From: an uncultured bacterium
Lineage (GTDB): Bacteria > Desulfobacterota > BSN033 > UBA1163
Direction of reading: 5' to 3'
Length of the DNA stretch: 64,000 nucleotides
Assembly (NCBI GenBank): GCA_938002255.1
Contig: CALLAL010000012.1
Span: 41,456-105,455 of the forward strand
The notes below the pieces were generated by a model. That model had not been told where the DNA came from and did no database searches. It worked only from the letters and a program-made list of their open reading frames with translations. The stretch's first letter is position 1. Each line of letters opens with the position of its first letter. This document shows, one piece after another, positions 13,434 through 49,644 of this stretch. The position numbers were made by a program, and so were the translations under genes.

Positions 13434-15194
13434 TTGTGTTTTTATGGAGGGAACATGGGACCAACCTTTGACCCCATCACCTTAGAAATTTTATGGCGGA
13501 GATTGATTTCGATTGTTGACGAAGCGGACAGTGCAGTCGCCCGGACCGCTTTCTCCAGTCTCCTTCGTGATGCTCACGACTATACCTGCATGTTTACGGA
13601 CCAGAAAGGACGAGAGTTGGCACAGGGCTCCTTTGCAACGCCAGGACAGTCGGGGGCTATGGCATTGGGGATTAAGAATTTGGTCACCCGGCTGCCTTTA
13701 GACACTTACAAACCCGGGGACATCTTTATCACTAATGATCCATGGGCATTAGCAGGACACCTGAACGATGTATGTGTTATGAGTCCTGTGTTTTATAATC
13801 AACAATTGGTTGCATTTACGGCTTGCGTCTTCCATCACTCAGATATTGGTGGCCGCGTCTCCTCCGACAACCACGATGTCTTTGAGGAAGGACTTTTCAT
13901 TCCCTTTGTAAAACTTTATGAGGGAGGGATCCTTAATCAATCTGTGATCGACATGATTCGGTGGAATGTTCGAACACCGGATGAAGTGATCGGAGACATT
14001 CGTTCTCAAATTGCCGCCAACCATGTTTGTTCTGAAAAAATCTGCCAGATGCTAAAGGAAAACGGGCTGGATCGTCTCGACGATCTCGCAGACCAGATCA
14101 TTCATCGCACAGAAAAGAGCATGAGGGAAGAGATTGAGAAGATCCCTGATGGGATCTATCAAGCCGAGGGAATGATAGAGCAGATGAAGGGCCAACAGGA
14201 TGTCGTCATTAAAGCAACGGTTGAAGTCAAGGGAAGCGACATCGTCGTAGATTTAACGGGGTCCTCTCCTCAAGTGAATTGGGGCGGGAATGTGGTCTAT
14301 AATTTTACCTACGCCTATGTTTTCATGGCCATTAAGAGTATGTTCGGTCCCGACATACCCAATAACGATGGCTGCGCAAGCCCCATCACCCTCCTGGCAC
14401 CGGAGGGGACTGTGGTCAACTGCCGATTTCCTGCAGCCGTTGCCGCACGTCTGGTCATCGGTCATTTCCTAACAGAGATCATCTATCGGGCGCTTGGCAA
14501 AGTGGCTCCTGATAAAGTGATTGCCGCCAGTGGGGGGACCCCTGCACAGATGAATGTCTTTTATGGGAAGAGAAAGAATGGGAAACCTTGGCACTCCGTG
14601 ATCATTCGAGGAGGTGGAATGGGTGCCAGCGTGAGAAGCGATGGCAATTATGTCTATATCTTTCCTGCAAACGGTGCCAATACCCCAATAGAGATTTTTG
14701 AAAGCGATACCCCCCTGATCGTGGAGCGAAGGGAACTGATCCCTGATTCAGGAGGTCCTGGCAAAATGAAAGGAGGACTCGGCCAGAGAGAGGTCTTCCG
14801 AATCCCCGATGATGAATATGGACCCCTTCCTCCAGTGAATCTTGGCATTCAAGCCGGAAGGCATGTCTATCCTCCTGAGGGTCTTTTCGGTGGTAAGCCG
14901 GGTTTGAAGGCAAAATTTCTTGTGGATGGCGTACCCGGAAACCCTTTTGGATTGACGCAACTCAATCCAGGGAGCGTGGTAACCATCGACGCAGCAGGCG
15001 GAGGGGGTTACGGCAATCCGTTTGAACGCGATCCAGAAATGGTTGAAAGAGATGTGCAGGAAGGTTATGTGAGTCTCGATAAGGCAAAAGAAGACTATGG
15101 CGTGGTCATCGACCCAAAGACATTGAAAGTAGATTGGGAGGCGACTAAAAGACAGAGGGAAAAGTTATCAGACGATGTGCCAACCCTTCGATAG
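13434..15194 (+). CDS. Hydantoinase B/oxoprolinase-family subunit
   Basis: HyuB family (DPITLEILWRRL start, 586 aa) immediately downstream of the A subunit. Confidence 0.85.
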   Translation: MCFYGGNMGPTFDPITLEILWRRLISIVDEADSAVARTAFSSLLRDAHDYTCMFTDQKGRELAQGSFATPGQSGAMALGIKNLVTRLPLDTYKPGDIFITNDPWALAGHLNDVCVMSPVFYNQQLVAFTACVFHHSDIGGRVSSDNHDVFEEGLFIPFVKLYEGGILNQSVIDMIRWNVRTPDEVIGDIRSQIAANHVCSEKICQMLKENGLDRLDDLADQIIHRTEKSMREEIEKIPDGIYQAEGMIEQMKGQQDVVIKATVEVKGSDIVVDLTGSSPQVNWGGNVVYNFTYAYVFMAIKSMFGPDIPNNDGCASPITLLAPEGTVVNCRFPAAVAARLVIGHFLTEIIYRALGKVAPDKVIAASGGTPAQMNVFYGKRKNGKPWHSVIIRGGGMGASVRSDGNYVYIFPANGANTPIEIFESDTPLIVERRELIPDSGGPGKMKGGLGQREVFRIPDDEYGPLPPVNLGIQAGRHVYPPEGLFGGKPGLKAKFLVDGVPGNPFGLTQLNPGSVVTIDAAGGGGYGNPFERDPEMVERDVQEGYVSLDKAKEDYGVVIDPKTLKVDWEATKRQREKLSDDVPTLR

Positions 15195-15295: not shown

Positions 15296-16588
15296 ATGGG
15301 AAAGAGTTTTATGCCAACGATTCGGACAGAAAGAGAACTAAAAAAGGTCCAATTAGAAGGACTTCAATGGACAGTCAATCACGTTTATCAGCATTCTGAA
15401 TTTTATCGGAATCGTTTCGATGAAGCAGGCGTTAAACCCAGACATATCAAATCGCTTAAAGACATTTCAAAACTTCCCTTCACCACAGCCGCCGACCTTC
15501 AGGAGGGGTACCCTTTCCCCTTAAGGTCGGTCCCCTTCGAAAAAATTGTGAGAATTCATGCCTCCTCCGGTACCACAGGGAAAAGGAAAGTGCTCTGTTA
15601 TACCCAGAAAGATATCAGCGACTGGGCAAATATGTTTGCCCGATGTTATGAAATGGCAGGTTTAACCCCAAAAGATCGAGTACAAATTGCTGTAGGTTAC
15701 GGAGTTTGGACAGCGGGGGTTGGATTTCAGTTGGGGTGTGAGCGTCTGGGAGCAATGGCCATACCTGTGGGTCCTGGAAATATTGATATGCAATGCCAAT
15801 TTCTCGAAGATTTTCGACCCACGGTCATCTGCGCTACAGCCTCCATGGCCCTTCTCATGGGTGAAGAGGTTGAAAAGAGAGGGATCAGGGAAAAGATTGG
15901 TTTAAGAAAAGTGATCATGGGTTCAGAGCGTTCGAGTGATGCCATGAGGGCAAGGATGAAGGACCTCCTCGGAGTGGACCATGTCTTTGACATCACAGGC
16001 TTGACAGAACTTTATGGTCCAGGGACCGGTATTGATTGCGACCGTCACGAAGGAATCCATTATTGGGCAGATTACTACATTCTCGAACTCCTTAATCCGG
16101 AAACTCTTCAACCGGTGCCCCCAGGCGAAACCGGTGAAATGGTAGTCACAACGCTCCGGAAAGAGGCCGCCCCTCTCATCCGCTATCGCACTCGGGACCT
16201 TACACGACTGATCCCAAAAAAATGTTCCTGTGGTTCCATTCTCCCCATGCATGACCGACTGCTTGGACGATCAGATGATATGTTTATTATTCGAGCTGTT
16301 AATATCTATCCGGGACAGATTGACCACATTCTCTCAAACACTAAAGGAATAGGCAGCGAATATCAGATACATCTTGATCGAAAAGAGGATGGAAAAGATT
16401 ACATGACCATTAAAGTGGAGCGGGCAGAAGGAGAAACTCCGGATCAAGATGCTGTGTTGGTACAAACCCTTGAATCAGAGATCAAAACGCAGATTCTGGT
16501 AAGCGGAAAGGTAGAAATTGTTGATTACGGCTCTCTTCCCCGCTCGGAGAGAAAGAGCAAACGAGTTTTTGATCACAGAGGAATTTAA
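15296..16588 (+). CDS. PaaK-family aryl-acetate-CoA ligase (phenylacetate/indoleacetate-CoA ligase-like)
   Basis: PaaK/F390-synthetase family: LKDISKLPFTTAADL, SSGTTGKRKV, about 430 aa; a sigma-70-like promoter lies upstream at 15252. Confidence 0.8.
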   Translation: MGKSFMPTIRTERELKKVQLEGLQWTVNHVYQHSEFYRNRFDEAGVKPRHIKSLKDISKLPFTTAADLQEGYPFPLRSVPFEKIVRIHASSGTTGKRKVLCYTQKDISDWANMFARCYEMAGLTPKDRVQIAVGYGVWTAGVGFQLGCERLGAMAIPVGPGNIDMQCQFLEDFRPTVICATASMALLMGEEVEKRGIREKIGLRKVIMGSERSSDAMRARMKDLLGVDHVFDITGLTELYGPGTGIDCDRHEGIHYWADYYILELLNPETLQPVPPGETGEMVVTTLRKEAAPLIRYRTRDLTRLIPKKCSCGSILPMHDRLLGRSDDMFIIRAVNIYPGQIDHILSNTKGIGSEYQIHLDRKEDGKDYMTIKVERAEGETPDQDAVLVQTLESEIKTQILVSGKVEIVDYGSLPRSERKSKRVFDHRGI

Positions 16589-16750
16589 TTCCTCTTTTAG
16601 AAGGAGGTGATGGAAAGAGATTTTTTAAAGACCAGAGGAACGTGTTGAAATCTTTTTCAAAACCTTATTCTTTTGCCTTGAGCCAATGGTCTCATGATAG
16701 TTAGTTCCCTAACCTTTTCCGGTTCTTCAATTTTAGAAAGGAGGAAAGAA

Positions 16751-17788
16751 ATGGTGAAAAAGGCTCTTCTATTATCCCTCTCAGGAATGCTGGTTTTATT
16801 CGGAACATTCGGTTTGATGGTTACAACTCCAGCTCAAGCCCAGATTAAACTAAGTTATGCGAATTTTCCGCCAGCCCCGACATTCCCCTGCGTGCAAATG
16901 GAGCGATGGAAGACAGAGGTTGAAAAGAGAACAGCAGGAAAAGTAAAAATCGACACCTACCCTGGAGGAACCCTGCTGGGAGCGAAAAACATGTTCGATG
17001 GCGTGGCCGCAGGAACAGCAGATATTGGTTCTACGGCAACCTCCTATTTCCCGGGAATGTTTCCTGTAGTCGAATTCGTTGATCTCCCCCTTGGTTGGCC
17101 CAGTGCCACTGTTGCAAGTGCTGCGCTTTACGAACTCGTGGATAAATATAAACCCAAAGAACTTGAAAAATTCAAAGTCCTCACGATGTTCACCTGTCCT
17201 CCTGCTAACATCATGTCCATGAAACCCATTCTCAGCCTTGAGGATCTGAAGGGCTATCCATTAAGGGCTTCTGGGACAGGGGCTAAAATTTTGGGTCTTC
17301 TTGGAGCCTCGGCAGTCGGCATGCCACAATCTGATGTTCCTGAAGCTATTCAGAAAGGTGTGATCAAAGGGAATGTCTCTTCTCTCGAAGTGATGAAGGA
17401 TTTCAAATACGCGGAGTATTGCAAACATGTGACCGCCAATGTCAACCTCTTTGTCGTCTCCTTTGCAGTCGTCATGAATCAGAAGAAATGGGATTCTTTG
17501 CCCGCAGATGTGAAGAAGGTGATGGATGACCTTCGCCTGGATCAGGCCATCTGGACAGGAAAATATGTGGATAACCATGTGAAAGAGTCGATGAAATGGT
17601 CCGAACAGACTCATAATGTTCAGGTCTACAGACTCTCTCCAAAAGAAATCTCAAGATGGGATGCCTTACTCAAACCCATGGTTGATCAACATCTCAAGGA
17701 GGTTGAAGCAAAAGGGCTACCAGCAAAAGCAATCCTTGAAGATACCTTGAAACTGAAAGAGAAATACACCAAACAATTCCCGGATTGA
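16751..17788 (+). CDS. TRAP transporter substrate-binding protein, DctP family
   Basis: Signal peptide; DctP-type SBP, followed by dctQ and dctM; start placed at the ATG after a GGAGGAAAG RBS. Confidence 0.8.
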   Translation: MVKKALLLSLSGMLVLFGTFGLMVTTPAQAQIKLSYANFPPAPTFPCVQMERWKTEVEKRTAGKVKIDTYPGGTLLGAKNMFDGVAAGTADIGSTATSYFPGMFPVVEFVDLPLGWPSATVASAALYELVDKYKPKELEKFKVLTMFTCPPANIMSMKPILSLEDLKGYPLRASGTGAKILGLLGASAVGMPQSDVPEAIQKGVIKGNVSSLEVMKDFKYAEYCKHVTANVNLFVVSFAVVMNQKKWDSLPADVKKVMDDLRLDQAIWTGKYVDNHVKESMKWSEQTHNVQVYRLSPKEISRWDALLKPMVDQHLKEVEAKGLPAKAILEDTLKLKEKYTKQFPD

Positions 17789-17892: not shown

Positions 17893-18399
17893 ATGGAGAT
17901 TCGAAGGATGCTCAAATGGGATCAGTGGAGTAATCGTTTAAGCCTCTGGTTCAATTGGTTGGGGGCCATTGCCCTTGCCGGGTTAACTGGAATCGCTTGT
18001 GTGAATATGTTGATGCGAATTCTTGGATCCCCCTTCAAGGGAGCCTATGAACTGGTCGGATTTTTCGGCGCTCTCGTGGTGGCTTTGCCCCTTGGTTATG
18101 CTCAGATTAATCGGGCCCACATCGCCGTTGATATTTTAGGCAGGCGTTATTCCAATAAGGCAAAACGCATCATCAATGCCTTCAACGATCTGGTTTGCAT
18201 GAGTCTTTTCCTTCTGGTCGCCTGGCAGAGTTCCGTTTATGCTACAGCTATATGGAAAAGAGGTGAAACATCCGAAACCCTTCGAATCATCTATCATCCT
18301 TTTGTCTATCTGGTCGCTCTCTGCTGCCTCCTTCTTGCCTTTGTCCTGTGTATCAATTTTCTTAAATCGCTTTTCCCCCTAAAGGAGAAAAATAGATGA
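17893..18399 (+). CDS. TRAP transporter small permease, DctQ family
   Basis: 168 aa with 4 transmembrane segments, between dctP and dctM. Confidence 0.8.
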   Translation: MEIRRMLKWDQWSNRLSLWFNWLGAIALAGLTGIACVNMLMRILGSPFKGAYELVGFFGALVVALPLGYAQINRAHIAVDILGRRYSNKAKRIINAFNDLVCMSLFLLVAWQSSVYATAIWKRGETSETLRIIYHPFVYLVALCCLLLAFVLCINFLKSLFPLKEKNR

Positions 18400-19691
18400 T
18401 TGGCCTTCTTGGAATTGTTATCCTTCTTGGTGTTATGATTCTTCTTCAGATGCCTGTAGGATTCGCAATGGCACTCGTGGGGTTCCTCGGATTATGGTAT
18501 GTTACAGGAATTCAGTCAGCCCTTTCAACCATTGGAACAGAGACTTGGTCCATCTTTTCCTCTTACGGATTGACCGTCATCCCCCTCTTCATTCTCATGG
18601 GAACGGTCTGCTTCTATTCGGGAGTGAACAAAAGTCTGTATGAAACAGCGTATAAATGGTTTGGCCGAACCCGGGGGGGTATTGCGATGGCAACGATAAT
18701 GGCGTGTGCAGGATTTTCTGCCATCTGTGGTTCCAATAATGCAACAGCGGCAACCATGTCAACCGTCGCCCTTCCGGAGATGAAGAAGTACCATTATCAT
18801 AATGCCCTTTCCTCCGGATCCATCGCCTGTGGTTCAACGCTCGGAGTCGTGATCCCGCCCAGTGTGGTGCTGATTGTTTATGGCATTCAAACAGGCCAAT
18901 CGATTGGAAAGCTTTTTTGGGGCTCCACCCTTCCAGGCATTCTGATGGCAACCCTGTTTGCGCTTACCGTTTATTTCATCTGTCTGAGACATCCAGAATG
19001 GGGGCCGGGAGGACCAAAGGCAAGTTTGTTGGAAAAGATAAAGGCAACCCCTGGCATGACCGAGATGGTCATTCTGTTTGGTCTGGTCATGGGCGGATTA
19101 TACACAGGGGCTTATACACCGACCGAGGCGGGTGCTGCAGGAGCCTTCTTCGCTCTGCTCATCGCGGGGACGATTCGAAGAAAATTAACTTGGAAAGGAT
19201 TGGTTTCATCCTTTACAGATGCTCTCAGGGTTGCCTGCATGGTCATTGTTATTGTGTGGGGAGCAGTTATTTTTGGCCGGTTTCTCACGATTAGTCGTCT
19301 GCCCTTCCTTGCTGTTGATTTTGTTTCAGCTCTTCAGATCCCACCGTTCATGATCATTGTCTGTATTCTCTTGATTTATGCCATTGCAGGCATGGTGATG
19401 GACGCTCTTGGCTTTCTTCTCATCTCAATCCCCATATTCTTTCCCATGGCCATGAAACTTGGTTACGATCCGGTTTGGTTTGGTTGCCTCCTGACTGTGG
19501 TGACCACTTTAGGTGCAGTCACTCCTCCTGTAGGAATTTGCGCCTACGTGGTTTCAGGGATGGCACCCGATATTCCCCTTGCCACCGTCTTCAAAGGTAT
19601 TATGTGGTTCATTCCCGCATATGTCGTTACGATGGGAATGATCATCCTTTTTCCACAAATCGTTCTTTTTCTTCCCAGCTTGGTCCGATAA
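18396..19691 (+). CDS. TRAP transporter large permease, DctM family
   Basis: 431-aa polytopic permease; its start overlaps the dctQ stop (ATGA). Confidence 0.85.
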   Translation: MIGLLGIVILLGVMILLQMPVGFAMALVGFLGLWYVTGIQSALSTIGTETWSIFSSYGLTVIPLFILMGTVCFYSGVNKSLYETAYKWFGRTRGGIAMATIMACAGFSAICGSNNATAATMSTVALPEMKKYHYHNALSSGSIACGSTLGVVIPPSVVLIVYGIQTGQSIGKLFWGSTLPGILMATLFALTVYFICLRHPEWGPGGPKASLLEKIKATPGMTEMVILFGLVMGGLYTGAYTPTEAGAAGAFFALLIAGTIRRKLTWKGLVSSFTDALRVACMVIVIVWGAVIFGRFLTISRLPFLAVDFVSALQIPPFMIIVCILLIYAIAGMVMDALGFLLISIPIFFPMAMKLGYDPVWFGCLLTVVTTLGAVTPPVGICAYVVSGMAPDIPLATVFKGIMWFIPAYVVTMGMIILFPQIVLFLPSLVR

Positions 19692-19710: not shown

Positions 19711-20565
19711 ATGAAAAAATTTGACTACCTTAAACCCCAATCCTTGGAGGAAGTCCTTTCCCTGTTGAATCAATTTGGGACTAAGGCAAAATTAATTGGC
19801 GGGGGAACAGATGCGATTGTCATGCAACGGCAGAATAAAATCTCTCCTGATCTTTTTATCTCTCTTCGTGGAATTCCCGGTTTGGATCACATTGAGGGAA
19901 ATGGACTTCTGAAAATTGGAGCAATGGTCACGCACCGAGCCATCGAACAATCCCCTTTAATCAGGGAAAGATTTCCTCTCCTTTCAGAGGCTTCGGGTCT
20001 CCTCGGTTCAGTTCAAATACGGAATGTCGCAACCCTTGGGGGCAATCTCTGTACTGCATCGCCCTCTGCAGAAACGGCACCGCCCCTTCTGGTTTATGAG
20101 GCTGAGGTCCATCTCATCAGTCAGAAGGGAGAAAGAAGAATCCCACTCGAATCATTTTTTCTCGGTCCCGGTGAGACAGCCCTTGAACAGAAAGAGGTGC
20201 TGAAGGAAATCCTCCTCCAACCGCCTCCTCCCAATAGCAGGGGAGCCTATTTGAAATTGGGACGGCGAAAGGCAATGGATCTTGCTGTGGTCAATGTGGC
20301 TGTCCTCTTAACCCTCAATCCCAAAACAGGCATCTGTGAACGAGCTCGAATAGCCTTAGGAGCCGTCGCCCCTACTCCAATCAGAGTGAGAGAGGCTGAG
20401 AACATCATTGAGGGGAATCAGCTTAATGATGAATTGATTCGTAAAGCAGGAGAGATGGCCAAACACACCTGTTCACCTATTTCTGATATCCGGGCTTCAT
20501 CAGAATATCGGAGGGAGATGGTTGGCGTCCTCGTTGAAAAAGCCATCAGGCAGTCTTTAACATAA
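19711..20565 (+). CDS. Xanthine-dehydrogenase-family molybdenum hydroxylase, FAD-binding medium subunit (CoxM-like)
   Basis: FAD_binding_5 motifs (LIGGGTDAIV, ATLGGNLC), 284 aa. Confidence 0.85.
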   Translation: MKKFDYLKPQSLEEVLSLLNQFGTKAKLIGGGTDAIVMQRQNKISPDLFISLRGIPGLDHIEGNGLLKIGAMVTHRAIEQSPLIRERFPLLSEASGLLGSVQIRNVATLGGNLCTASPSAETAPPLLVYEAEVHLISQKGERRIPLESFFLGPGETALEQKEVLKEILLQPPPPNSRGAYLKLGRRKAMDLAVVNVAVLLTLNPKTGICERARIALGAVAPTPIRVREAENIIEGNQLNDELIRKAGEMAKHTCSPISDIRASSEYRREMVGVLVEKAIRQSLT

Positions 20566-20589
20566 CATTTTTGAAAGGAATATCGTACG

Positions 20590-21054
20590 ATGAAACAGAC
20601 CGTGCAATTTAAACTAAATGGGGAATCCATCCAGATCGAGGTAGAACCTCATCTCAGCCTCCTTCAAGTTATCAGAGAAAAGTTAGAACTGACGGGAACC
20701 AAAGAAGGCTGCGGGATGGGAGAATGTGGCGCCTGTACTGTGTTGGTGGATGGGAAAGCAATCAATTCCTGCCTTTTCCCGATTCTGGAGGTAGAGGGAA
20801 AGAGTGTTACAACGATTGAAGGACTGATTGAAGCCGATGGAACGCTCCATCCTCTTCAACGGTCTTTTGTCGAAAACGGAGCCGTTCAATGTGGCTTTTG
20901 TACCCCTGGAATGGTTCTTTCTGCCAAAGCCCTTCTGGATCAACATCCCAAGCCGACGGAGAAACAGATTCGTCTTGCCATCTCAGGAAATCTCTGTCGT
21001 TGCACTGGATATATTCAGATTATCCGGGCCATCCAGGCTGCCAGTGAACAATAG
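20590..21054 (+). CDS. Molybdenum hydroxylase (2Fe-2S)-binding small subunit (CoxS-like)
   Basis: Two [2Fe-2S] motifs CGMGECGAC and CGFCTPG; 154 aa. Confidence 0.9.
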   Translation: MKQTVQFKLNGESIQIEVEPHLSLLQVIREKLELTGTKEGCGMGECGACTVLVDGKAINSCLFPILEVEGKSVTTIEGLIEADGTLHPLQRSFVENGAVQCGFCTPGMVLSAKALLDQHPKPTEKQIRLAISGNLCRCTGYIQIIRAIQAASEQ

Positions 21055-21086
21055 CCGAAGACCATGTTAAGAAACGGAGGGGTAAG

Positions 21087-23384
21087 ATGACAGAGTTTAT
21101 TAATGTTGGGAAACGAATCCCCAAATCAGACGCCCAGGAAAAGGTCACTGGAAAAGCAATCTATATTCAGGATCTTAAAATTCCAGGGATGCTATGGGGA
21201 AAAATCCTTTACAGCCACCATCCCCATGCACGAATTTTGAACATTGATACCTCTGAAGCAGAAAAACTTCCGGGAGTAAAGGCCGTTCTCACAGGGTATA
21301 ATATACCCACGATCAAATTTGGTTTTTACAAAGATAATACTCCACTGAAATCGAATAAAGTGTGTTCCTATCGTGACGAAGTGGCAGCAGTAGCCGCCAT
21401 TGATCCAGACATCGCTGAGGAAGCAATCAATCTCATCAAAGTCGAATATGAACTCCTTCCTCCAGTCTTCGATCCAGAGGAAGCCATGAAGGAAGGGGCT
21501 CCTCTCATTCATGAAGATCATTTGGGCGGGAAGGAGAAAAAACCAACCAATATTCTCAATATCCCTTGGAAACTTGTGGCTGGAGATGTCGAAGAGGGTC
21601 GAAAAAATTCAGACTATGTGGCAGAGAACCGATTCAAAGTGACCTGGGTCACCCACTGCTGTATGGGAACAAGTGGTTGTATCGCTCAATTTGATCCCCG
21701 AGATAATCTTACCATTTACAGCAACACACAGATTCCTTCTCTTGCTCAGCGAGACTTTACAGAAGCCCTTTCCGCGATGGGGCTCCAAGGGAAGAAGGTC
21801 AGACTGATCAAAGCCACCATCGGTGGTGCCTTCGGGAGCAAACTGGACACCTACCCCTATGAATATATTGCTATTCTATTGGCACACCGTACGCGTAAGC
21901 CGGTCAAGATTATTTTTTCTCGGGAGGAGGAATTTTTTGCCACATCTCCCAGACAAGCGGCCATCATTGATATCGCCCAGGGATGTAAAAAGGATGGGAC
22001 CCTGACGTTTAGAGATGTCCGGATGGTTTTGGATAATGGTGCCTATACCTCCTGGGGAGCAACCACTCCTTCGGTAATGATGATGCCCATTTCTTCTCTT
22101 TATAAAGTTCCCCATGTACGATATGTAGCCAAATGTGTTTATACTAACAACACCTATTCCCAGGCATTTCGTGGTTATGGAAATCCTCAAGCCACCTTTG
22201 CTATCGAATCGCAAATCGATTCTCTTGCCGAAATGGCTGGGATTGATCCACTCGACTTCAGATTGAGAAATGCCAACACCCCTGGAGAAGTCACTCCCCA
22301 GCGATTCAAAGTTGGCACCTGTGGTTTAAGAGAATGCATCGATGCAGTGGCTCAGCGATTGGATTGGAGGCAAAATCGAGGGAAACGAGATGGAAGAGGG
22401 GTTGGAATGGCTTCCTTGATTCATGTTGGTGGAGGAGCGCGGGTCTATAAATCAGACGGATGTGGAACCATCATCAAAGTAGATGATTTCGGAACGGTCA
22501 ATGTGATTACCGGCGCTACGGACATGGGACAGGGAGCAGATACGGTCATTGCTCAGATTGTTGCAGAAGAGCTCGGCGTAAGAATCCAGGATGTGGTTGT
22601 GACACACACGGATACAGACATCTGCCCCTGGGATGTCGGAGCCCATGCCAGTCGAACGACCTTTGTGGCGGGGAACTCAGCAAAGATGGCTGCCAAAAAA
22701 GTGAAGGAACAACTTCTCGAAGTCGCTTCCAGATCTCTGGGTGAAGTCCCTGAAAATCTCGAGATTCGAGATCGAATGGTTTTTTCTAAAATCGATCCCG
22801 AGAAGAAATCTCCACTTGGAAAGGTTCTAAGAGCTGCACACTACACCACCGGCGGAAAGATGGTTATGGCGGAGTATTTTTACGATCCCCCTAACGAAAA
22901 CCTGGACAAAGAATTTAAGGGAAATCTTTCTGTGACCTATGCCTATGGGACGCACGGCGTTGAGGTGGAAGTAGATAAAACCACAGGGCAAGTCAACATC
23001 CTAAAATATATCGCTGCCCATGATGTTGGAAGAGCCGTTAATCCCATGCTTTTAGAAGGGCAGGTCTATGGCGGAGCAGCCATGGGAATCGGGTACGCAT
23101 TGATGGAACAGCTTGTCCTTAACAACGGAAAGGTGATCAATCCTGATTTCAGGGATTATAAAATCCTCACGGCTTCGGATATCCCAACTATCGAAGCCAT
23201 CACGATCGAAACGGACGACCCCTTTGGTCCTTTTGGAGCCAAAGGGATTGGAGAACCAGGTCTGGTTCCAACGGCCCCCGCCATTGCGAATGCCATTTAT
23301 GATGCCATCGGAGTGAGGATTAAGGATCTTCCCATCACCCCTGAAAAGATTTTGGCCGCCCTAAAAGGGAAAGATTCCAAATAA
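21087..23384 (+). CDS. Molybdenum hydroxylase molybdopterin-binding large subunit (CoxL-like)
   Basis: 765 aa with aldehyde oxidase / xanthine dehydrogenase a/b hammerhead and MoCo-binding domains. Confidence 0.9.
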   Translation: MTEFINVGKRIPKSDAQEKVTGKAIYIQDLKIPGMLWGKILYSHHPHARILNIDTSEAEKLPGVKAVLTGYNIPTIKFGFYKDNTPLKSNKVCSYRDEVAAVAAIDPDIAEEAINLIKVEYELLPPVFDPEEAMKEGAPLIHEDHLGGKEKKPTNILNIPWKLVAGDVEEGRKNSDYVAENRFKVTWVTHCCMGTSGCIAQFDPRDNLTIYSNTQIPSLAQRDFTEALSAMGLQGKKVRLIKATIGGAFGSKLDTYPYEYIAILLAHRTRKPVKIIFSREEEFFATSPRQAAIIDIAQGCKKDGTLTFRDVRMVLDNGAYTSWGATTPSVMMMPISSLYKVPHVRYVAKCVYTNNTYSQAFRGYGNPQATFAIESQIDSLAEMAGIDPLDFRLRNANTPGEVTPQRFKVGTCGLRECIDAVAQRLDWRQNRGKRDGRGVGMASLIHVGGGARVYKSDGCGTIIKVDDFGTVNVITGATDMGQGADTVIAQIVAEELGVRIQDVVVTHTDTDICPWDVGAHASRTTFVAGNSAKMAAKKVKEQLLEVASRSLGEVPENLEIRDRMVFSKIDPEKKSPLGKVLRAAHYTTGGKMVMAEYFYDPPNENLDKEFKGNLSVTYAYGTHGVEVEVDKTTGQVNILKYIAAHDVGRAVNPMLLEGQVYGGAAMGIGYALMEQLVLNNGKVINPDFRDYKILTASDIPTIEAITIETDDPFGPFGAKGIGEPGLVPTAPAIANAIYDAIGVRIKDLPITPEKILAALKGKDSK

Positions 23385-23692
23385 TAGGATTCGAGGAGCA
23401 AATGCTTCATTAAAAATATTACTCTTGAATCCGTACACCCTTGAATCCTTGAACCCACCCAATAGGTTTGCCCAAAATTGTTACTATTTGGGTATTATTG
23501 TCATAAATCTTCCTTTTTTACGCAATTAAACGATCTTTCAATAACGCCTTCCTTTAACAGAAAAAAGTAAAAAGAGCTTAAATATTGAAAAGATAGGACA
23601 TTTTCCAATGATTTAAGAAAATTAAAGAAAATTTGGAACAAAAATTGCTGTTTGCCCTTCTACCGGTCTTTTATTCAATCAAGGAAAAGAAG

Positions 23693-26600
23693 ATGAAAAA
23701 AGAGAATAAAGATACCCAATCTAAGAGAAAATCAGATTTAGATTCCCCTTTAAAAAAAGACGAACCCAAAGATCTAACCAACTATTCAGAATATGAAGAC
23801 ATTTATAAAAAACTTGTAGAATCATCCCTGCAGGGGATTATCATTGCCCAGGGCCTCCCGCCCCGCTTAGTCTATGCGAATCCTGCCATCTCAAAAATTC
23901 TTGGCTACACTCCCGATGAATTAACCTCTCTATCGATAGATGAAACCGATTCCCTCATCCATCCAGAGGACCGATACGAATTTTTTAAACGCTATCAAGA
24001 ACGTCTTGAGGGAAAACTCTCTTCTGCAAGCATTGTCTTTCGTGGAATTCGAAAAGACGGAAGTAGCATCTGGTTGGAGGGGACAGGAACCCGGATCGAA
24101 TATCAAAATCAACCGGCCGTCCTTGCCACCTTCATCGAAATCACAGAACGAAAACATGCAGAACAGCAACTGATCAAAAGAAGTCAATTTCAACAACTCA
24201 TCACGACCCTTTCCACAAACTTCATTAATATATCGTCGAAGGAGATCGATTCGGAAATTCACCGAACCCTTCAAAAGATTGGCGAATTTGCAGAGGTGGA
24301 TCGGAGTTACGTTTTCCTGTTTGCTGAAACCTTTGAAAAGATAAATAACACTCACGAATGGTGCGCTCCAGGTATTGAGCCACAAATCCAAAGACTTCAG
24401 CAGATTGAAATCGACCGGGAATTTCCGTTTTTTGCCAAAACCATCAAGAATCGAGAAGTCTTCCATGTTCCCCGGGTTGCAGAGCTCTCGGAAAACGCCA
24501 GAGCTGAAAAAAGGGAATTTGGACGTCAAAAGATCCAATCCCTGATTTGTGTGCCCATGGTCTGTCAGGATCAACTGATCGGGTTTCTTGGGTTAGATTC
24601 GGTCAGACGGGAGAAATCCTGGCCAGAAGATATCATCACTCTTCTCAAAACAGTTGGAGAAATGATCGGAAGTGCGATCGTTCGAAAACGGGCTGAAGAG
24701 GCATTACGAGCCAGTGAAGAAAGATATAAAACCATCATTGAAAGTATTGAGGATGGATATTTTGAAGTGAACCTTGCAGGGGATCTAACTTTTTTCAATG
24801 ATTCTCTTTGTCGGATATTGGGCTATTCACGGGAAGAAATGTTAGGCATGAGTAATCGGCAGTACACGGATGAAGAGAATCGCAAAAAATTATATGAAGC
24901 CTTTAATAAAGTCTATCGAACGGGACAGCCCACAAGAGCCTTTGCCTGGGAGATCATTCGTAAAGATGGGATGAAAAGGTTTGGAGAGGTTTCCATTACC
25001 CTGATGAAAAATTCAAAAGGAGAACCTATCGGATTTCGAGGCACAGCCCGCGATGTGACGGAACGAAAGAAGGCGGAACAAGAAATTCAACAAACCCTCT
25101 CTCTCTTAAACGCCACGTTGGAATCGACTGCCGATGGAATCCTTGTGGTTGATTTAAACGGTAAAATCGTCAGCTATAACCAGAAATTTGTCCAACTCTG
25201 GCATATCCCCGACTCGGTGATAGTCTCCCGAAACGAGGACCAAGCCCTTGCTTATGTATTAGATCAGTTGAAGGACCCAAACGGTTTTCTGGATAAGGTG
25301 AGGGCCCTTTATGCTCAACCAGAGGCTGAAAATTATGATGTGATTGAGTTTAAAGATGGGAGACGATTTGAGCGGTTTTCGACCCCTCATCGAATCGGTG
25401 ACCAGATTGTTGGACGGGTCTGGTGCTTTCGGGATGTGACAAATCACTTGCAAGCAGAGGAAGCCCTTGCCAGAAGTGAAGAGCGCTACCGAATGCTGGT
25501 GGAGGAGAGTTTTGATGGCATCTTTATCCAAAGAGGTGCCGAGATCATCTTCGCAAATCGTCGCCTTCATGAGATGCTGGGTTATGAGGAAGGGGAATTA
25601 TTAGGAATGAACCACTGGAGGGTCTATCACCCAAACTACCAGAGCCTAACGCGCAAAAGAGCAGAAGCCCGTTTGCGCGGAGAATCTCCTCCCTCCACCT
25701 ATGAAGTTAAATTCCAGCGAAAAGATGGGTCATCCTTCTGGGGAGAGATTAATGCTAAAGTCATACATTTTGTAGGAGGACCTGGAATTCAGGTCTGGGC
25801 AAGGGATATCAGTGAAAGAAAACTTGCAGAAGAGATACTCCAGGCTGAGAAGGAACGATTCCAGTCCTTATCAGAGGGTGCTCCTTTTGGGATGGTGATG
25901 ATCAGTCAAGATGGTCGATTCAAATACATGAATCCCAAATTTAAAGAGCTGTTTGGCTATGACCTCCGAGACATACCGGATGGAAAAACCTGGTTTAGAA
26001 AAGCCTACCCTGATCCAGACTACCGCCGTCAAGTTATCGGCACCTGGTTAACCGATCACACGGTTTCAAAACCAGGGGCAAAAGTGCCCCGAGTTTTTAC
26101 AGTCCGATGTAAAGATGGAACAGAAAAGATTATTAATTTCATATCGGTTTACCTTCAATCAGGCGAAACCCTTATGACTTGCGAGGATATCACCGAATTA
26201 AAACGGGCGGAGGAGGCATTGCGCCAGACTGAAGAACAACTGCGACATTCCCAGAAAATGGAAGCAGTGGGAAAACTGGCAGGGGGGGTCGCACACGACT
26301 TCAACAATTTGCTCACCGTGATCAAAGGCTATGCCGAACTCTCCTGTATCGGATTAGAAGAGAGTGATCCTTTGCGAATCAATCTTGAGGAAATACGAAA
26401 GGCATCCGAACGTGCCGCCAGTCTCACCCGGCAATTGTTAGCGTTTAGTCGAAGACAGATTCTTGATTTGAAGATCGTCAATCTGAATACCCTTTTAAAA
26501 GATCTTGATAAGATGCTCCATCGAATTATGGGTGAAGACATTGAACTGGTTTACCACCTTAGTCAAGACCTTGGAATGGTCAAAACCGACCCAGGCCAAA

Positions 26601-27382
26601 TGGAACAGGTCATTCTGAACCTTGCGGTGAATGCGAGAGATGCCATGCCCTCCGGAGGCAAATTGACGATCGAAACATTTAATGTGGAACTGGACGAGGC
26701 TTATTCGAAAAAACATATGGAAGTGACTCCTGGTCAGTATATCATGCTTTCCGTCAGCGACAGTGGGATTGGAATCTCGCCAGAGGTGAAGGACCGAATT
26801 TTTGATCCCTTCTTCACTACAAAAGAAAAAGGGAAAGGAACGGGGCTCGGACTCTCCATGGTCTATGGGATTGTCAAGCAAAGCGGAGGCAACATCTATG
26901 TTTATAGTGAGCCCGGCCATGGAACCACCTTTAAAATTTATCTCCCAAAAATTGAAGCAGAAGAAGAAAATCTCCAGCTTCAACCCGAATCAACGCGTAC
27001 TCTCCCAAAAGGAAACGAGAATATTCTTCTTGCAGAAGATGAAACATCGGTTCGGGAGTTGACCGCTCGCATCCTCCGAGAACATGGTTATCAAGTCTTT
27101 GAGGCCCAAAATGGGATGGATATCTTAAACTTTGTCAAAAGTCATCGAGAGAAAGAGTTTCACCTCCTGGTCACAGACGTGGTGATGCCTATCATGAGCG
27201 GCAAGGAACTTGAAAATCATCTAAAACCGCTCATCCCCGGCCTGAAGGTGATCTTTATTTCTGGTTATACAGACAATGCGATTGTCCACCATGGCGTGTT
27301 GATGGAGGGGGTGGAGTTTCTCCAGAAGCCTTTTACCCATCACACCCTTCTTAACAAAGTTCGCGAAGTACTCGACCGATGA
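23693..27382 (+). CDS. Multi-PAS/GAF hybrid sensor histidine kinase with C-terminal receiver domain
   Basis: Repeated PAS modules; HisKA H-box HDFNNLL; HATPase_c; C-terminal REC (ILLAEDE...VVMP); the ORF opens at 23633 but Met at 23693 has the better RBS. Confidence 0.8.
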
Positions 27383-27475
27383 CTTAGGGTGAGACGACAC
27401 GGGATGGCGATACCATTCGATACAGTTTGTGAAATGCTCTTCAGATCATTCGATTGTTAGACAGGGAGAAAAAAA

Positions 27476-27709
27476 ATGGATAAATATTCTCAACTTAGAA
27501 CATTTAACTCAGAACTCCGGACAAAGGAAATTATGACGCCTCGGGAAGCGGCAGACTATTTAAGCATTCATGTCCGAACGATCTACCGTTTGGCGAAGAA
27601 GGGTGAAATCCCGGGGAGAAAGATCGGTGGGAGTTGGAGATTTAAAAAGGAGGCTTTAGATCAGTGGCTTTCTGGCAAGGAGGGAACATCTCCGGAGGAA
27701 AAGCGGTAA
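27476..27709 (+). CDS. Excisionase-family (MerR-like) helix-turn-helix DNA-binding protein
   Basis: 77 aa; HTH_17 pattern [37 protein letters not shown]; its stop overlaps the start of the next gene (TAATG). Confidence 0.6.
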
Positions 27710-29268
27710 TGGAACATCGAGTGTTAGTGGTTGACGATGAGCGAGACATCCGGGACTTTCTCTTCAAAGCCCTGACCCGGATTGCTGGGTTTCAGGTTGA
27801 ACTGGCAGAGAACGGAGAGGATGCTCTTAGAAAGATTGAAAACGAAAGGTTTGACCTCATCCTGACAGATTTGAAGATGCCGGCAATGGATGGCCTTCAA
27901 CTGATTACCGAGATTTCAAGGAAGAAACCAGAAACGCTTACCGTTTTGATGACGGGGCATGGAACCATCGACTCAGCGATAGAGGCCATGAAGCAAGGGG
28001 CAAGCGATTACTTGACCAAACCCCTCAATTTGGATGAAATGATTCTTCGTCTTAAAAAAGTCCTCGATGAAAAACAACGGTTTGTTAGGCTCAAAGACTA
28101 TATTGATCAACTGGAGAAAGCCAATCAGGAGCTGAAGAAGATCGATGCGATGAAATCGGAATTTGTATCGGTGGCCTCCCACGAGTTAAGGACTCCTTTG
28201 GCAGCTATCAAAAATTCTATTCAACTAATTCTATCAGGTAAGACAGGAACGATCAATGAGACCCAGACAAAATTTCTTTCCATGGCCGAAAGAAACATCA
28301 ATCGTCTAACCAATATTTTAAATGATCTGCTGAGCCTCTCGAGGATTGAATCTGGGCGAATGGCACTTTCTTTTGAAAATATATCCTTGCAAACCATCAT
28401 CGAACCTACCCTCTCCTCCTTGAAACCCCAGGCCGATGGAAAATCGATCGCCCTTGAGGTGGACTACCCTGAAGGGCTTCCTCAGGTTTATGTGGACAAA
28501 GAAAAAATTGAACAGGTCCTCGTCAATTTGGTAGGAAATGCAATCAAATTCACTCCTGAAGGAGGAAAAATTTCCGTATCGGCAAAGCTCATTTCTGAAG
28601 AAAGAGAGGGAGGACCAGCAAGAAAGGTGGTGGTCTCCGTAAAAGATACAGGAATTGGAATCCCGCAAGAACACTTAAATTCCATCTTTGACAAATTCTA
28701 TCAGGTGGAAGGCTCTCTCCATCGCTCTGCAGGTGGAACGGGTCTTGGGCTTGCCATTACGAAGGGATTGGTCGAAGCCCATCAGGGAAAGATCTGGGTC
28801 GAAAGCGAGGTAGGAAAAGGAAGCACGTTTATCTTTACGCTTCCCATCGCTGAAGAAGAGAGGAGGGAGATTCCTCTGCGTTATCTTCTCGAAAAGGAAT
28901 TTCATCGCGCAAGCAAAAATGATCTTCCCTTATCCCTCTTTCTGATCGAATGGGCAAACTCAGGAAAAGGTTGGGAGGGAAAAGAATCTGATCAACTCGA
29001 AACACGAATCAAACGCTGTCTTTGTCGTAAAGGCGATTTCCTGCTCAGAATGAGACAGGCCCCTTTATGGGTGGCCCTATGCGAAGCGGATCAGAAAGGG
29101 GTTCAGGCCATTACGCAACGGATCAAAGAAGAACTACAAAAAGATCCGATCCAAGGACCTGAGGGACCCATGGTAGTGAAGATCGGAGCAGCCACTTTTC
29201 CACAAGAGGCTGTGACCAAAAGGGAACTTTTCAGAAAGGCGAAGGATCGGTTAAGGAGGGAAGCATGA
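27709..29268 (+). CDS. Hybrid response-regulator / histidine kinase with a degenerate GGDEF-like C-terminus
   Basis: N-terminal REC (VLVVDDERD...[10 protein letters not shown]), HisKA (SHELRTPL), HATPase_c, then a roughly 130-aa tail resembling the C-terminal half of a GGDEF domain without the GGDEF motif. Confidence 0.75.
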
Positions 29269-29636
29269 GCCATAAGAGGATTCTGGTGGTTGACGATGAA
29301 GTTGATCTGGTGGAAACGATCCGTTTCTCTCTCGAACTGGAGGGATTTGAAATTCTTGTAGCCTACAATGGTGAAGAGGCCTTGAATCAGGCAAGGAAGG
29401 AGAAACCCGACTTGATTCTCCTTGACCTCATGTTGCCCAAACTGGATGGATACAAGGTCTGCCGACTCTTAAAGTTTGACGAGCGATACAAACATATTCC
29501 GATCCTGATGTTGACCGCTAAGTCCCAGGATAAGGACAAGACCATTGGATTGGAAACTGGAGCGAACGAATACATTACAAAACCCTTTGACATGGATGAC
29601 CTTATGAAGAAAGTAAAGCATTATCTTGGTCAATAA
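29265..29636 (+). CDS. Single-domain CheY-like response regulator
   Basis: 123-aa REC domain (ILVVDDE...[10 protein letters not shown]...KP). Confidence 0.85.
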
Positions 29637-29730: not shown

Positions 29731-30948
29731 ATGCCCATCTTTCAATACAGAGCACGAGACCGAAACGGTAAGGCTATTGAGAGCAAGCTGGAGGCTCCCA
29801 CCCTCCAGCTTGCAGGAGATCAGCTTCGCCGTCTCGGATATTTACCTGTTTCGATTGAAGAAATGAAGAAATCTAAGTCGATCACTCTTTCGGATTGGTC
29901 CCCCCAGTTCAAAAAGGTTCGGCTGGAAGATCTCATCCTTTTCAGTCAGCAGTTGTCCACACTCTATAAGGCGGGCTTGCCTCTTCTACTAAGTCTATCG
30001 AATCTAAAGGACCAAGTTGAGAATAAAAGATTCAGGTCTGTCTTAGAAAAAGTTTGTAACGACGTCGAAGGAGGAAACCCACTTTTTGCATCCCTAGCAA
30101 AGCATCCGGATGTGTTCTCTACGATTTACATCAATATGATTCGTGCTGGCGAGGCGTCCGGTCGTTTAGGAGAATCTCTGGACCGGTTTGTAAACCTTGC
30201 TGAAAGGGAACTCCAGACCCGGCAGAGACTGAAGGAAGCCACCCGGTATCCAAAGATCGTCATCTTTTCAGTGGTCATCGCTTTTGCAGTTCTGATTGCC
30301 TTTGTCATCCCCCGATTTGCAGCGACCTTCGCACAATTTAATATGCCATTGCCATTACCAACCCGGATCATGATTGCCGTGAATCATATCTTCCAGTCTT
30401 ACTGGTACGTGGTCCTGGGCTTCTTTCTGAGTCTCTTAATCGTTCTAAAACGCTATGTTAAGACGAAGCGGGGAAGATACTTCTGGGATTATCTCCAATA
30501 TCGAATACCTGTTTTAGGCCCCCTGTTTTTAAAAATTGGGCTTTCCCGATTTACCCATACCCTTGGAATGTTAAACCGAAGTGGGATCCCTATTTTGCAA
30601 GCTCTCGAAATGACTTCAACCACAGTGGATAACATCCTTCTTGCCCAATCCATTGAGGGAGTCAAACAACGGGTCAGCGAGGGAAGCAGTTTAACCGATG
30701 CATTAAAGGAAAGCGGAAGGTTTACCCCTCTGGTTACCCAGATGATTTCAGTGGGGGAATCCTCCGGTACGCTGGATGAAATGTTAAGCAGGGTGACAGA
30801 CTATTACGATGTGGAAGTTGAAAATGCGATGAAGAAACTTCCCACTTACATCGAACCTCTTCTGACGCTTTTTTTAGGGGGGGTTGTTTTGCTTCTTGCT
30901 CTGGCTGTATTTCTCCCCTGGTGGAATCTCGCTTCGTTGTTCAGGTGA
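29731..30948 (+). CDS. pilC: Type IV pilus assembly platform protein PilC (GspF family)
   Basis: Two T2SF repeats and 3 transmembrane segments; 405 aa. Confidence 0.85.
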   Translation: MPIFQYRARDRNGKAIESKLEAPTLQLAGDQLRRLGYLPVSIEEMKKSKSITLSDWSPQFKKVRLEDLILFSQQLSTLYKAGLPLLLSLSNLKDQVENKRFRSVLEKVCNDVEGGNPLFASLAKHPDVFSTIYINMIRAGEASGRLGESLDRFVNLAERELQTRQRLKEATRYPKIVIFSVVIAFAVLIAFVIPRFAATFAQFNMPLPLPTRIMIAVNHIFQSYWYVVLGFFLSLLIVLKRYVKTKRGRYFWDYLQYRIPVLGPLFLKIGLSRFTHTLGMLNRSGIPILQALEMTSTTVDNILLAQSIEGVKQRVSEGSSLTDALKESGRFTPLVTQMISVGESSGTLDEMLSRVTDYYDVEVENAMKKLPTYIEPLLTLFLGGVVLLLALAVFLPWWNLASLFR

Positions 30949-31004
30949 TTCACAAAGGACGATGGAAAATGGACCAAAGACCTGTGAATTTCAGATGTTG
31001 GCAT

Positions 31005-31448: not shown

Positions 31449-31478
31449 TTTCGGAATTCATATTTCGGAATAAAAACT

Positions 31479-33686: not shown

Positions 33687-33748
33687 TTTTGAGGATTATT
33701 CATGGAAGACTAAAATGCAAACAAAACTTAAAAAAGTAGAGGTCAAAT

Positions 33749-35458: not shown

Positions 35459-35461
35459 ACC

Positions 35462-36028: not shown

Positions 36029-36038
36029 GAGGCATTCA

Positions 36039-36518: not shown

Positions 36519-36521
36519 GCG

Positions 36522-49629: not shown

Positions 49630-49644
49630 TGAATAGTCTTCATT

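Follow-up and report, generated by a model that had tools for sequence, protein, structure and literature searches.

A candidate selenium-dependent molybdenum hydroxylase and a linked mocA-yqeB-yqeC-hyp192-xdhC operon in uncultured Syntrophaceae-like Desulfobacterota

Introduction

Of the biological routes of selenium use, its insertion into molybdenum hydroxylases is regarded in the literature as the least understood. The joint presence of YqeB and YqeC is a published genomic signature of the selenium-cofactor trait (PMC2276186, PMC5029168). A stretch of 64,000 nucleotides from an uncultured Desulfobacterota bacterium (GenBank assembly GCA_938002255.1, contig CALLAL010000012.1, positions 41,456 to 105,455; here called the window, which denotes the whole stretch) carries genes for a molybdenum hydroxylase at 19711-23384 and, far away on the opposite strand, a five-gene operon (47120-51086) that includes both signature genes. 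This arrangement raises the question whether the operon matures the remote hydroxylase and whether the cofactor delivered contains selenium. An initial annotation of the window had proposed selenium dependence for this enzyme or for another one elsewhere in the genome, and had suggested that the pilus and signalling genes between the two loci may be a later insertion. In the account put forward here, the hydroxylase of a catabolic cluster resembling the iaa (indoleacetate) cluster obtains its cofactor from the mocA-yqeB-yqeC-hyp192-xdhC operon and is selenium-dependent; taken as a whole, this account is considered moderately probable.

The hydroxylase and the maturation operon

Families were assigned by comparison of scores with curated NCBIfam cut-offs, with Pfam domain calls beside them (Table 1). 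The three open reading frames (ORFs) at 19711-23384, located exactly where the initial annotation had placed genes of CoxM/S/L type, are assigned by sequence to a three-subunit hydroxylase of the xanthine-oxidase family with flavin adenine dinucleotide (FAD), two [2Fe-2S] clusters, and molybdopterin, all four features of family membership being present. The molybdopterin-binding large (Mo) subunit shows PF01315, PF02738, and PF20256 far over their gathering cut-offs, corresponding to an a/b-hammerhead and two molybdenum cofactor (MoCo)-binding domains, and its catalytic Glu lies within GAKGIGEP, which aligns with GAKGVGEP of the nicotinate dehydrogenase subunit NdhM and with the equivalent site of 4-hydroxybenzoyl-CoA reductase (4-HBCR). 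In the small subunit, the eight [2Fe-2S] cysteines are complete (CGMGECGAC...C and CGFC...CRC). The FAD subunit harbors only three dispersed Cys and is devoid of a [4Fe-4S] insertion. More than 100 homologues of the Mo subunit with 77-100% identity are found in metagenome-assembled genomes (MAGs) of Desulfobacterota, and the nearest named ones come from MAGs labelled Syntrophaceae, Thermodesulfobacteriota, or Deltaproteobacteria.

The label 'CoxM/S/L-like' holds for the subunit architecture and fails at the active-site loop of CO dehydrogenase, which is absent. An aerobic CO dehydrogenase (CoxL form I) was rejected: the score with TIGR02416 is 336 bits (cut-off 991), and the enzyme is not taken for a CO dehydrogenase because the region of the Cu-binding loop VAYRCSFR reads QAFRGYGNPQ.

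As already noticed in the initial annotation, neither xdhC nor mocA adjoins the hydroxylase (gene calls and Pfam on the neighbours). Upstream, a TRAP (tripartite ATP-independent periplasmic) transporter gene, dctM, stops at 19691, 19 bp before the FAD gene, and downstream a gene for a PAS/GAF hybrid histidine kinase starts at 23633, 249 bp after the Mo subunit gene. The eight genes for hydroxylase and maturation are each single-copy in the 64 kb window (tblastn). Further genes for enzymes of the xanthine dehydrogenase (XDH) family, for XdhC, or for MocA are found neither in the window by tblastn nor among the called genes of the 10 kb contig flanks.

The candidate maturation genes form a minus-strand operon, whose composition was described correctly from the letters alone: MocA, YqeB, YqeC, and XdhC score over their NCBIfam cut-offs, XdhC only marginally, and the fifth protein, hyp192, begins with a signal-peptide-like sequence. 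MocA is the cytidylyltransferase that forms the molybdopterin cytosine dinucleotide (MCD) cofactor; the MobA model TIGR02665 gives only 42 bits. The genes are tightly packed, the start of hyp192 overlapping the yqeC stop by 4 nt and 15 bp separating hyp192 from xdhC. The distance of about 24 kb stated for the two loci amounts to 23.7 kb, measured between the stops of the Mo-subunit gene (23384) and xdhC (47120).

Two details of gene structure stand apart from these assignments. The longest YqeB ORF (283 aa) overlaps the mocA stop, and nearly all homologues have 271 aa; the true start is therefore probably an internal Met 12 codons downstream. In the hydroxylase locus of the clade, the FAD subunit comes in two types, a short one of 284-286 aa in the window and at L092:8149-9009 (74% identical to each other; L-numbers are labels of the genome loci compared) and a long one of 322-327 aa, extended at the C-terminus and with 24 aa inserted (L004:8426-9394, L006:8366-9349). 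Short and long types are only about 49% identical, yet the accompanying Mo subunits share 84-88% identity, which suggests subunit replacement or fast divergence. At L092:9555-9920 and L094:2561-2926, a gene for a 121-aa four-helix-bundle protein (Pfam 23S_rRNA_IVP) separates the genes of the FeS and Mo subunits; the window lacks it and has only 32 bp between these two subunit genes.

Is the cofactor a selenium cofactor?

YqeB and YqeC, encoded by adjacent genes of one operon linked to a hydroxylase, both exceed the cut-offs of their models TIGR03309 and TIGR03172, the check that had been named beforehand for the selenium proposal. Their use as genomic markers agrees with published work, in which members of TIGR03309 occur only in selD-positive genomes across diverse taxa (PMC2276186). 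Genetic evidence comes from Clostridioides difficile, where yqeB is required for selenium-dependent purine use (PMC11448449). A precedent is 2,8-dioxopurine dehydrogenase (DOPDH), a selenium-dependent XDH-family enzyme that is inactive when obtained from a host without SelD (bioRxiv 10.1101/2025.04.24.650524). Based on these markers, selenium dependence of the window hydroxylase is a candidate property for which the arguments on either side are about evenly balanced.

The gene identities, the operon structure, and the linkage to the hydroxylase kept among relatives are shown by the sequences; from the gene set we infer the substrate, the MCD form of the cofactor and, above all, the selenium ligand. 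In the proposed maturation route, MocA would convert molybdenum-molybdopterin (Mo-MPT) to its cytosine dinucleotide form. YqeB, together with YqeC, would most likely replace or install the terminal chalcogen ligand, with the selenium coming from a SelD-derived donor, and XdhC would hold the cofactor and insert it into the hydroxylase.

Several observations weigh against selenium, and most of them speak for a different explanation, in which the operon matures an MCD cofactor with an ordinary sulfido ligand, YqeB and YqeC act as general partners of XdhC, and the enzyme is a normal hydroxylase of the sulfur type. The biochemical roles of YqeB and YqeC are not yet established, and deletion of yqeC in C. 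difficile, the only genetic test so far, had no phenotype (PMC11448449). Each of the two proteins may also act in processes independent of selenium (PMC5029168), and many distant loci pair YqeB simply with XdhC, with no YqeC within 10 kb. A tblastn search with an E. coli SelD query detects no selD in 82 kb of the source contig (positions 31164-112843 of the 119,848-bp ENA record ERZ6864144:c_000003669202, in which the window starts at about 39550) or in 89 related loci (1.38 Mb), where the sole match, weak with 26% identity, lies in an unrelated locus of Anaerolineae; the called genes of the 10 kb contig flanks include no selD either. With the equivalog model of selenium-dependent XDH (Se_dep_XDH, TIGR03311), the Mo subunit reaches 414 bits, under the cut-off of 830, and is by this measure no orthologue of the clostridial selenium-dependent XDH. 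The protein sequence of the hydroxylase offers little help, given that no active-site signature tells selenium and sulfur enzymes apart (bioRxiv 10.1101/2025.04.24.650524). Among structures in the PDB, the best single chain for the Mo subunit is 4-HBCR alpha (448 bits), the L and M subunits of selenium-dependent nicotinate dehydrogenase (3HRD) give 239 and 231 bits and together match at least as closely as 4-HBCR alpha, and the C-terminal half is matched best by NdhM of the latter enzyme. As a pointer to selenium, this likeness to 3HRD is suggestive and not diagnostic.

The sulfur-type explanation has to account for the restriction of TIGR03309 to selD-positive genomes and for the presence of both markers in one tight operon. 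Moreover, SelD is likely present in the organism because Deltaproteobacteria are described as rich in selenoproteins (PMC5029168). The lack of selD near the operon is what would be expected if the organism also makes selenocysteine, since selD is then located far from yqeB (PMC2276186). On this evidence, an ordinary sulfido ligand appears rather unlikely. For the selenium proposal of the initial annotation, this means that the marker genes are confirmed, whereas the expected selD did not turn up in the sequence covered and selenium itself is still deduced from them.

Linkage of operon and hydroxylase among relatives

The operon and the orthologous hydroxylase genes are linked in several members of the clade, at distances that vary widely, as emerged from the comparison of synteny that had been suggested for this locus. 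In Syntrophaceae UBA2188 (L032), the two loci are arranged tail to tail with an empty gap of 140 bp from xdhC stop to Mo stop, and the Mo subunit gene (protein 84% identical) is followed by the FeS, FAD, and TRAP genes. In the JGI contig Ga0568894_0000081, the gap is 7.1 kb and holds a PAS kinase, an HTH_17 gene, and a response regulator. The gap amounts to 23.6 kb in Ga0484001_0000500 and 23.7 kb in Syntrophaceae L.E.D.62 (JACAEX010000001.1), both with the same pilus block as the window, where the 23.7 kb are taken up by a signalling module and the pilus block. Two more contigs appear to carry both the Mo-subunit and the YqeB genes. The set of YqeB homologues is comparable in size to that of the Mo subunit (72-93% identity).

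Beyond the clade, distant YqeB proteins (52-64% identity; Chloroflexota, Archaeoglobi, Desulfobacula, Desulfitobacterium, and others) are encoded next to XDH-family genes of other subfamilies, as at L033, L034, L040, L041, L050, L056, L062, L063, L078, and L084. This variety agrees with Haft and Self, who found the accompanying enzymes to be varied (PMC2276186). One of these loci, from a Desulfobacula sp. MAG (L063:424-10849), shows two XDH-family loci and a TRAP transporter directly upstream of YqeB; one of the two includes a Mo subunit that is 63% identical to that of the window and is encoded about 7 kb from YqeB without pilus genes, and the arrangement looks like an outgroup version of the association.

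The linkage makes it probable, as judged from gene order, that the operon at 47120-51086 serves the hydroxylase at 19711-23384, possibly along with other enzymes. It could also be that the main client of the operon is another XDH-family enzyme, encoded at a distant site of the genome, and that the operon's nearness to the hydroxylase is inherited synteny without functional meaning. The sequence covered is about 82 kb of the genome, XdhC scores best on NF045664, a model named for aldehyde-oxidoreductase maturation, and synteny can persist by descent among fairly close relatives. In L020 and L024, xdhC is followed by different genes, so that the linkage is not universal. Set against this, rearrangement brought the two loci together (7.1 kb, then 140 bp) and not apart, no further xdhC or mocA is available close to the hydroxylase, and YqeB genes are also clustered with XDH-family genes in phyla far from this clade. 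A different client is thus considered improbable. At L024:12511-13606, two overlapping ORFs (175 and 233 aa) take the place of an intact xdhC and are followed by two C25 peptidase genes; the split may reflect a pseudogene or an assembly frameshift.

The catabolic cluster and the probable substrate

The hydroxylase, presumably a cytoplasmic enzyme, is the last enzyme encoded in a catabolic cluster that extends from a GntR/FCD-family regulator gene to the Mo subunit (1615-23384); unrelated genes (UvrA, glutaredoxin) are located upstream of the regulator gene. Five enzyme families of the iaa type occur together at 2360-23384, a comparison made at the family level only: a ligase, an XDH-family molybdenum enzyme, a Hyd-type lactamase, a B12-dependent mutase, and a hydratase/dehydrogenase. 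The order HydA-HydB-ligase-DctPQM-FAD-FeS-Mo is kept in relatives, where the PaaK-like ligase is found at the same position with 84-88% identity. The lactamase is matched best by the NCBIfam models of caprolactamase, CapA (544 bits) and CapB (257 bits), both under cut-off, and the mutase stays under the equivalog cut-off of methylmalonyl-CoA mutase (461 vs 876).

The anaerobic indoleacetate pathway, including a molybdenum enzyme forming the 2-oxo derivative, was reportedly first described by Ebenau-Jehle in 2012. In this route, the ligase IaaB yields indoleacetyl-CoA, a Hyd-type gamma-lactamase opens the ring, and the mutase IaaGH rearranges the product ahead of beta-oxidation (PMC8360864; PMC5214803). 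The roles of IaaB and IaaGH and the pathway are described in PMC8360864, and the 2-oxoindoleacetyl-CoA gamma-lactamases of the Hyd family in PMC5214803. As the gene content of the window matches this pathway, the substrate of the hydroxylase is probably a (hetero)aryl-acetyl-CoA. In the proposed sequence of reactions, the TRAP transporter would take up the substrate, and the PaaK-like ligase would convert it to a (hetero)aryl-acetyl-CoA. The hydroxylase would then oxidize the ring carbon beside the heteroatom to yield a lactam, to be opened by the ATP-dependent HydA/B lactamase, before the B12-dependent mutase and the hydratase/dehydrogenase fusion would carry out rearrangement and beta-oxidation.

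Some components of the known route weigh against this assignment by being absent: IaaF (benzylmalonyl-CoA dehydrogenase, an acyl-CoA dehydrogenase) and IaaL (family III CoA transferase) are found neither between the GntR gene and the hydroxylase nor within 10 kb upstream, and the cluster holds no thiolase. The cluster is called only 'iaa-like' because these three are missing and because the comparison was made with families, not with the Iaa sequences. A substrate of the iaa type is, on gene content, about as plausible as it is doubtful.

A [4Fe-4S] insertion defines the beta subunit of 4-HBCR (1RM6 structure). That the enzyme is itself a 4-HBCR, a reductive dehydroxylase, as the annotation of two homologues claims and as the best single PDB and NCBIfam matches of the Mo subunit (4-HBCR alpha; 448 and 631 bits) and the CoA ligase gene close by might suggest, is highly improbable and was rejected on these defining features, for alpha, beta, and gamma stay far under their equivalog cut-offs (631 vs 995, 126 vs 405, 170 vs 258), the insertion is missing from a FAD subunit that has three Cys and matches TIGR03195 in two separate stretches, and a breakdown of 4-hydroxybenzoate would not account for the lactamase and mutase genes close by.

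Which layout came first

The signalling and pilus block that separates the two loci had been suggested as a possible later insertion. Three layout classes are distinguished in the clade: contiguous loci (class A), loci with only the kinase after xdhC (class B), and loci with pilins, YfhO, GT2, and MshE right after xdhC (class C). Among species-level genomes with enough sequence, 11 and the window belong to class C, one or two to class B, and one to class A; the remaining two show other neighbours after xdhC, namely a different pilus module (L020) and C25 peptidases next to the split xdhC (L024). Two gene trees built by a simple method bear on the direction of change. In the first (neighbour-joining with bootstrap; concatenated MocA, YqeB, YqeC, and XdhC, 1006 columns), class C genomes appear in all major subclades, also on the earliest branches, and A and B are sisters (75% bootstrap) inside a group with 100% support that otherwise consists of class C genomes. 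In the Mo-subunit tree, A and B are again sisters (100%) nested in class C lineages, and the window and Ga0484001 form the basal pair.

Since A and B are nested as sister tips in both trees, these contiguous and near-contiguous forms are best read as secondary deletions, in which the pilus block was probably lost first and the signalling genes later. Most genomes show the separated layout, which by parsimony is probably ancestral for the clade; the spacing of 23.6-23.7 kb is kept in three genomes (window, Ga0484001_0000500, L.E.D.62). The proposal of a later insertion finds no support in this distribution within the clade, and an insertion of pilus and signalling genes before the radiation of the clade is possible.

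Features of the window and neighbouring genes

The features discussed are collected in Table 1. In relatives, the same signalling module follows the hydroxylase, and the set of GT2, methyltransferase, YfhO, and pilin genes is found next to xdhC in 11 related genomes. Another group of pilus-related genes (PilY1, PilX_N, N_methyl pilin) is located about 7 kb past the right end of the window (L091:17123-21740), and a set similar to PilY1/PilX_N/pilin follows xdhC in L020.

Table 1. Genes and other features of the window; scores are in bits, where applicable against the model cut-off.
Feature	Position	Strand	Basis
MocA, molybdenum cofactor cytidylyltransferase (MCD-forming)	50493-51086	-	TIGR03310 203 vs 186
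YqeB	49645-50496	-	TIGR03309 380 vs 220
YqeC, P-loop protein	48793-49629	-	TIGR03172 185 vs 73; Pfam YqeC; Walker A GAGGKTT
hyp192, 192 aa, predicted exported and all-helical	48218-48796	-	no Pfam/NCBIfam match
XdhC, Mo-cofactor insertion chaperone, 360 aa	47120-48202	-	NF045664 352 vs 350 (marginal); Pfam XdhC_CoxI, XdhC_C
Promoter-like site TTGACA-18-TAAATT, just upstream of mocA	51102-51131	-	consensus scan, 10/12 matches; weak evidence
FAD-binding medium subunit, short type, 284 aa	19711-20565	+	Pfam FAD_binding_5 (168), CO_deh_flav_C (102)
Small subunit, 2x[2Fe-2S], 154 aa	20590-21054	+	Pfam Fer2, Fer2_2
Molybdopterin-binding large (Mo) subunit, 765 aa	21087-23384	+	Pfam Ald_Xan_dh_C, MoCoBD_1, MoCoBD_2
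GntR/FCD-family regulator, first cluster gene	1615-2301	+	Pfam GntR, FCD; best NCBIfam matches GntR models
B12-dependent acyl-CoA mutase, small B12-binding subunit	2360-2779	+	TIGR00640 159 vs 57
B12-dependent acyl-CoA mutase, large subunit	2863-4491	+	TIGR00641 573 vs 304
3-Hydroxyacyl-CoA dehydrogenase/enoyl-CoA hydratase fusion	4621-6642	+	Pfam 3HCDH_N, ECH_1, ECH_2
TAXI-type TRAP transporter, binding protein	6719-7702	+	Pfam NMT1_3
TAXI-type TRAP transporter, fused permease	7745-9667	+	Pfam DctM
Acyl-CoA synthetase resembling o-succinylbenzoate-CoA (OSB-CoA) ligase	9681-11228	+	Pfam AMP-binding; PRK06839 453, under equivalog cut-off
ATP-dependent lactamase A, hydantoinase/oxoprolinase family	11265-13370	+	Pfam Hydantoinase_A
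ATP-dependent lactamase B, hydantoinase/oxoprolinase family	13434-15194	+	Pfam Hydantoinase_B
PaaK-like aryl-acetate-CoA ligase (IaaB-like)	15296-16588	+	Pfam AMP-binding, AMP-binding_C_2; TIGR02155 PaaK 417 vs 646
TRAP transporter DctP	16694-17788	+	Pfam DctP
TRAP transporter DctQ	17893-18399	+	Pfam DctQ
TRAP transporter DctM	18396-19691	+	Pfam DctM
Signalling module	23633-29636	+	Pfam
PAS/GAF hybrid histidine kinase	23633-27382	+	Pfam
HTH_17 ORF, 77 aa	27476-27709	+	Pfam
Response regulator-histidine kinase	27664-29268	+	Pfam
Response regulator	29265-29636	+	Pfam
MSHA-like type IV pilus cluster (T2SSF, minor pilins, PilM, secretin, AAA ATPase, TPR protein, MshE ATPase)	29731-42355	+	Pfam, NCBIfam
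GT2 glycosyltransferase, methyltransferase, YfhO-like membrane protein, two pilins	42352-47036	-	Pfam, gene calls

The scans for promoters and terminators yielded site numbers not clearly over those of shuffled controls. A scan of the window at the Rfam gathering threshold gave no match and hence no molybdenum cofactor riboswitch and no SECIS (selenocysteine insertion sequence) family, and ARAGORN detected in the window no tRNA, and thus no tRNA-Sec.

The gene hyp192 is real, conserved, and lineage-restricted. All operons of the clade carry it, with yqeC on one side and xdhC on the other (orthologues in L008-L032, 46-59% identity); its homologues number about 600, all unnamed, and a full profile search gives only 32 clusters at 50% identity. 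The N-terminus resembles a signal peptide of the Sec type (consensus ...SFAFA|EDY), and the protein displays the conserved motifs YQEGxFWxSKL, LYKSLKDLSxNFNAYNN, and VGDLAPExxLWADPVFY and a Lys/Pro-rich tail (KEKKPxPKGKKP). An AlphaFold2 model is all-helical (pLDDT 83), and no fold match to it was obtained in the PDB. As predicted, hyp192 would be an exported protein within an operon for cytoplasmic cofactor maturation.

Divergent from mocA, genes for a USP (universal stress protein) and a multihaem cytochrome c of 501 aa are located at 51235-53327 (+); a multihaem cytochrome is a recurring neighbour of the operon in several relatives (L014, L023, L032, L093). Further on (54985-57153, +), a molybdoenzyme of the DMSO-reductase family (722 aa; MGD, i.e. 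molybdopterin guanine dinucleotide type) is encoded, with Fdh-alpha and PhsA as best matches, both under cut-off. Seven related loci (L008, L011, L013, L020, L024, L026, L032) keep a gene of this family upstream of mocA; MocA does not make the cofactor of this MGD-type enzyme. At L093:3261-7710, beside the mocA operon and past the multihaem cytochrome, two YedE/YeeE-like Sulf_transp proteins, a metallo-beta-lactamase-rhodanese fusion, and a SulP transporter are encoded, families linked to sulfur or selenium trafficking that are not found at this position in the window.

Comparison with known systems

The closest counterparts of the operon are the selenium-cofactor loci of E. coli (ygfJ/mocA-yqeB-yqeC), Enterococcus faecalis, and C. 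difficile (PMC2276186; PMC11448449), which harbor the same three marker families (TIGR03310, TIGR03309, and TIGR03172) clustered with XDH-family genes. XdhC is linked to YqeB there too, and in Haloarcula the two are fused. The window differs from these loci in its host, an uncultured Syntrophaceae-like member of the Desulfobacterota instead of a gut firmicute or enterobacterium, in the additional lineage-specific and predicted exported hyp192, and in its client, which belongs to an aryl-acetate iaa-like cluster and not to purine or nicotinate catabolism. Neither selD nor ygfK, ssnA, or any other gene of the purine cluster is found near the loci of the window.

Among characterized enzymes, the selenium-dependent nicotinate dehydrogenase of Eubacterium barkeri (3HRD) belongs to the same family and shares the GAKGxGEP Glu motif. 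Its Mo subunit is split into L and M, whereas that of the window is a single chain of 765 aa, and the gene context in the window points to a CoA-thioester substrate, not free nicotinate; the selenium content of the window enzyme is only predicted. The 4-HBCR of Thauera aromatica (1RM6) is likewise composed of three subunits, and a CoA-thioester substrate is suggested because, as with 4-HBCR, a CoA ligase gene is located nearby. In contrast to the reductive dehydroxylation by 4-HBCR, the reaction of the window enzyme is likely an oxidative hydroxylation, and its context includes a lactamase and a mutase.

The iaa cluster of Aromatoleum aromaticum and Azoarcus evansii (PMC8360864; PMC5214803) shows the same combination of enzyme families together with a binding-protein-dependent transporter, a likeness by family, not by sequence. 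The cluster of the window, from a strict anaerobe, is devoid of IaaF, IaaL, and thiolase, and has an additional OSB-CoA-ligase-like synthetase and TRAP transporters. For DOPDH from Clostridium sporogenes, the co-occurrence with YqeBC and SelD gave the first prediction of selenium dependence (bioRxiv 10.1101/2025.04.24.650524). DOPDH lacks the FAD domain and acts on urate, and its selenium dependence is backed by the inactive enzyme of the selD mutant, whereas that of the window enzyme is backed by genes.

Implications

Proven selenium-dependent molybdenum hydroxylases are few, all of them purine or pyridine hydroxylases of fermenting bacteria. A literature search turned up no link of such enzymes to Syntrophaceae or Desulfobacterota, and none of the iaa molybdenum enzyme to YqeB or YqeC. 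The clade described here adds a candidate from another phylum, habitat, and pathway, and its compact five-gene operon stays linked to one structural locus. As a tentative extension, a whole Syntrophaceae-like clade of Desulfobacterota common in anoxic soils, peat, and sediments may use a selenium-dependent molybdenum hydroxylase on a (hetero)aromatic acyl-CoA, most likely indoleacetyl-CoA, and hyp192 might be a new component of the selenium-cofactor trait.

The operon offers a clean gene set for examining the functions of YqeB, YqeC, and XdhC. Should selenium play no part, the locus would serve as a useful counter-example to the rule that the pair YqeB and YqeC means selenium. If the proposal is true, selenium-dependent molybdenum hydroxylases would extend past the fermentation of purines and nicotinate in gut and clostridial bacteria to the environmental turnover of plant hormones and aromatic acids, and selenium supply would become a condition for the anaerobic breakdown of auxin-like compounds in soils and sediments.

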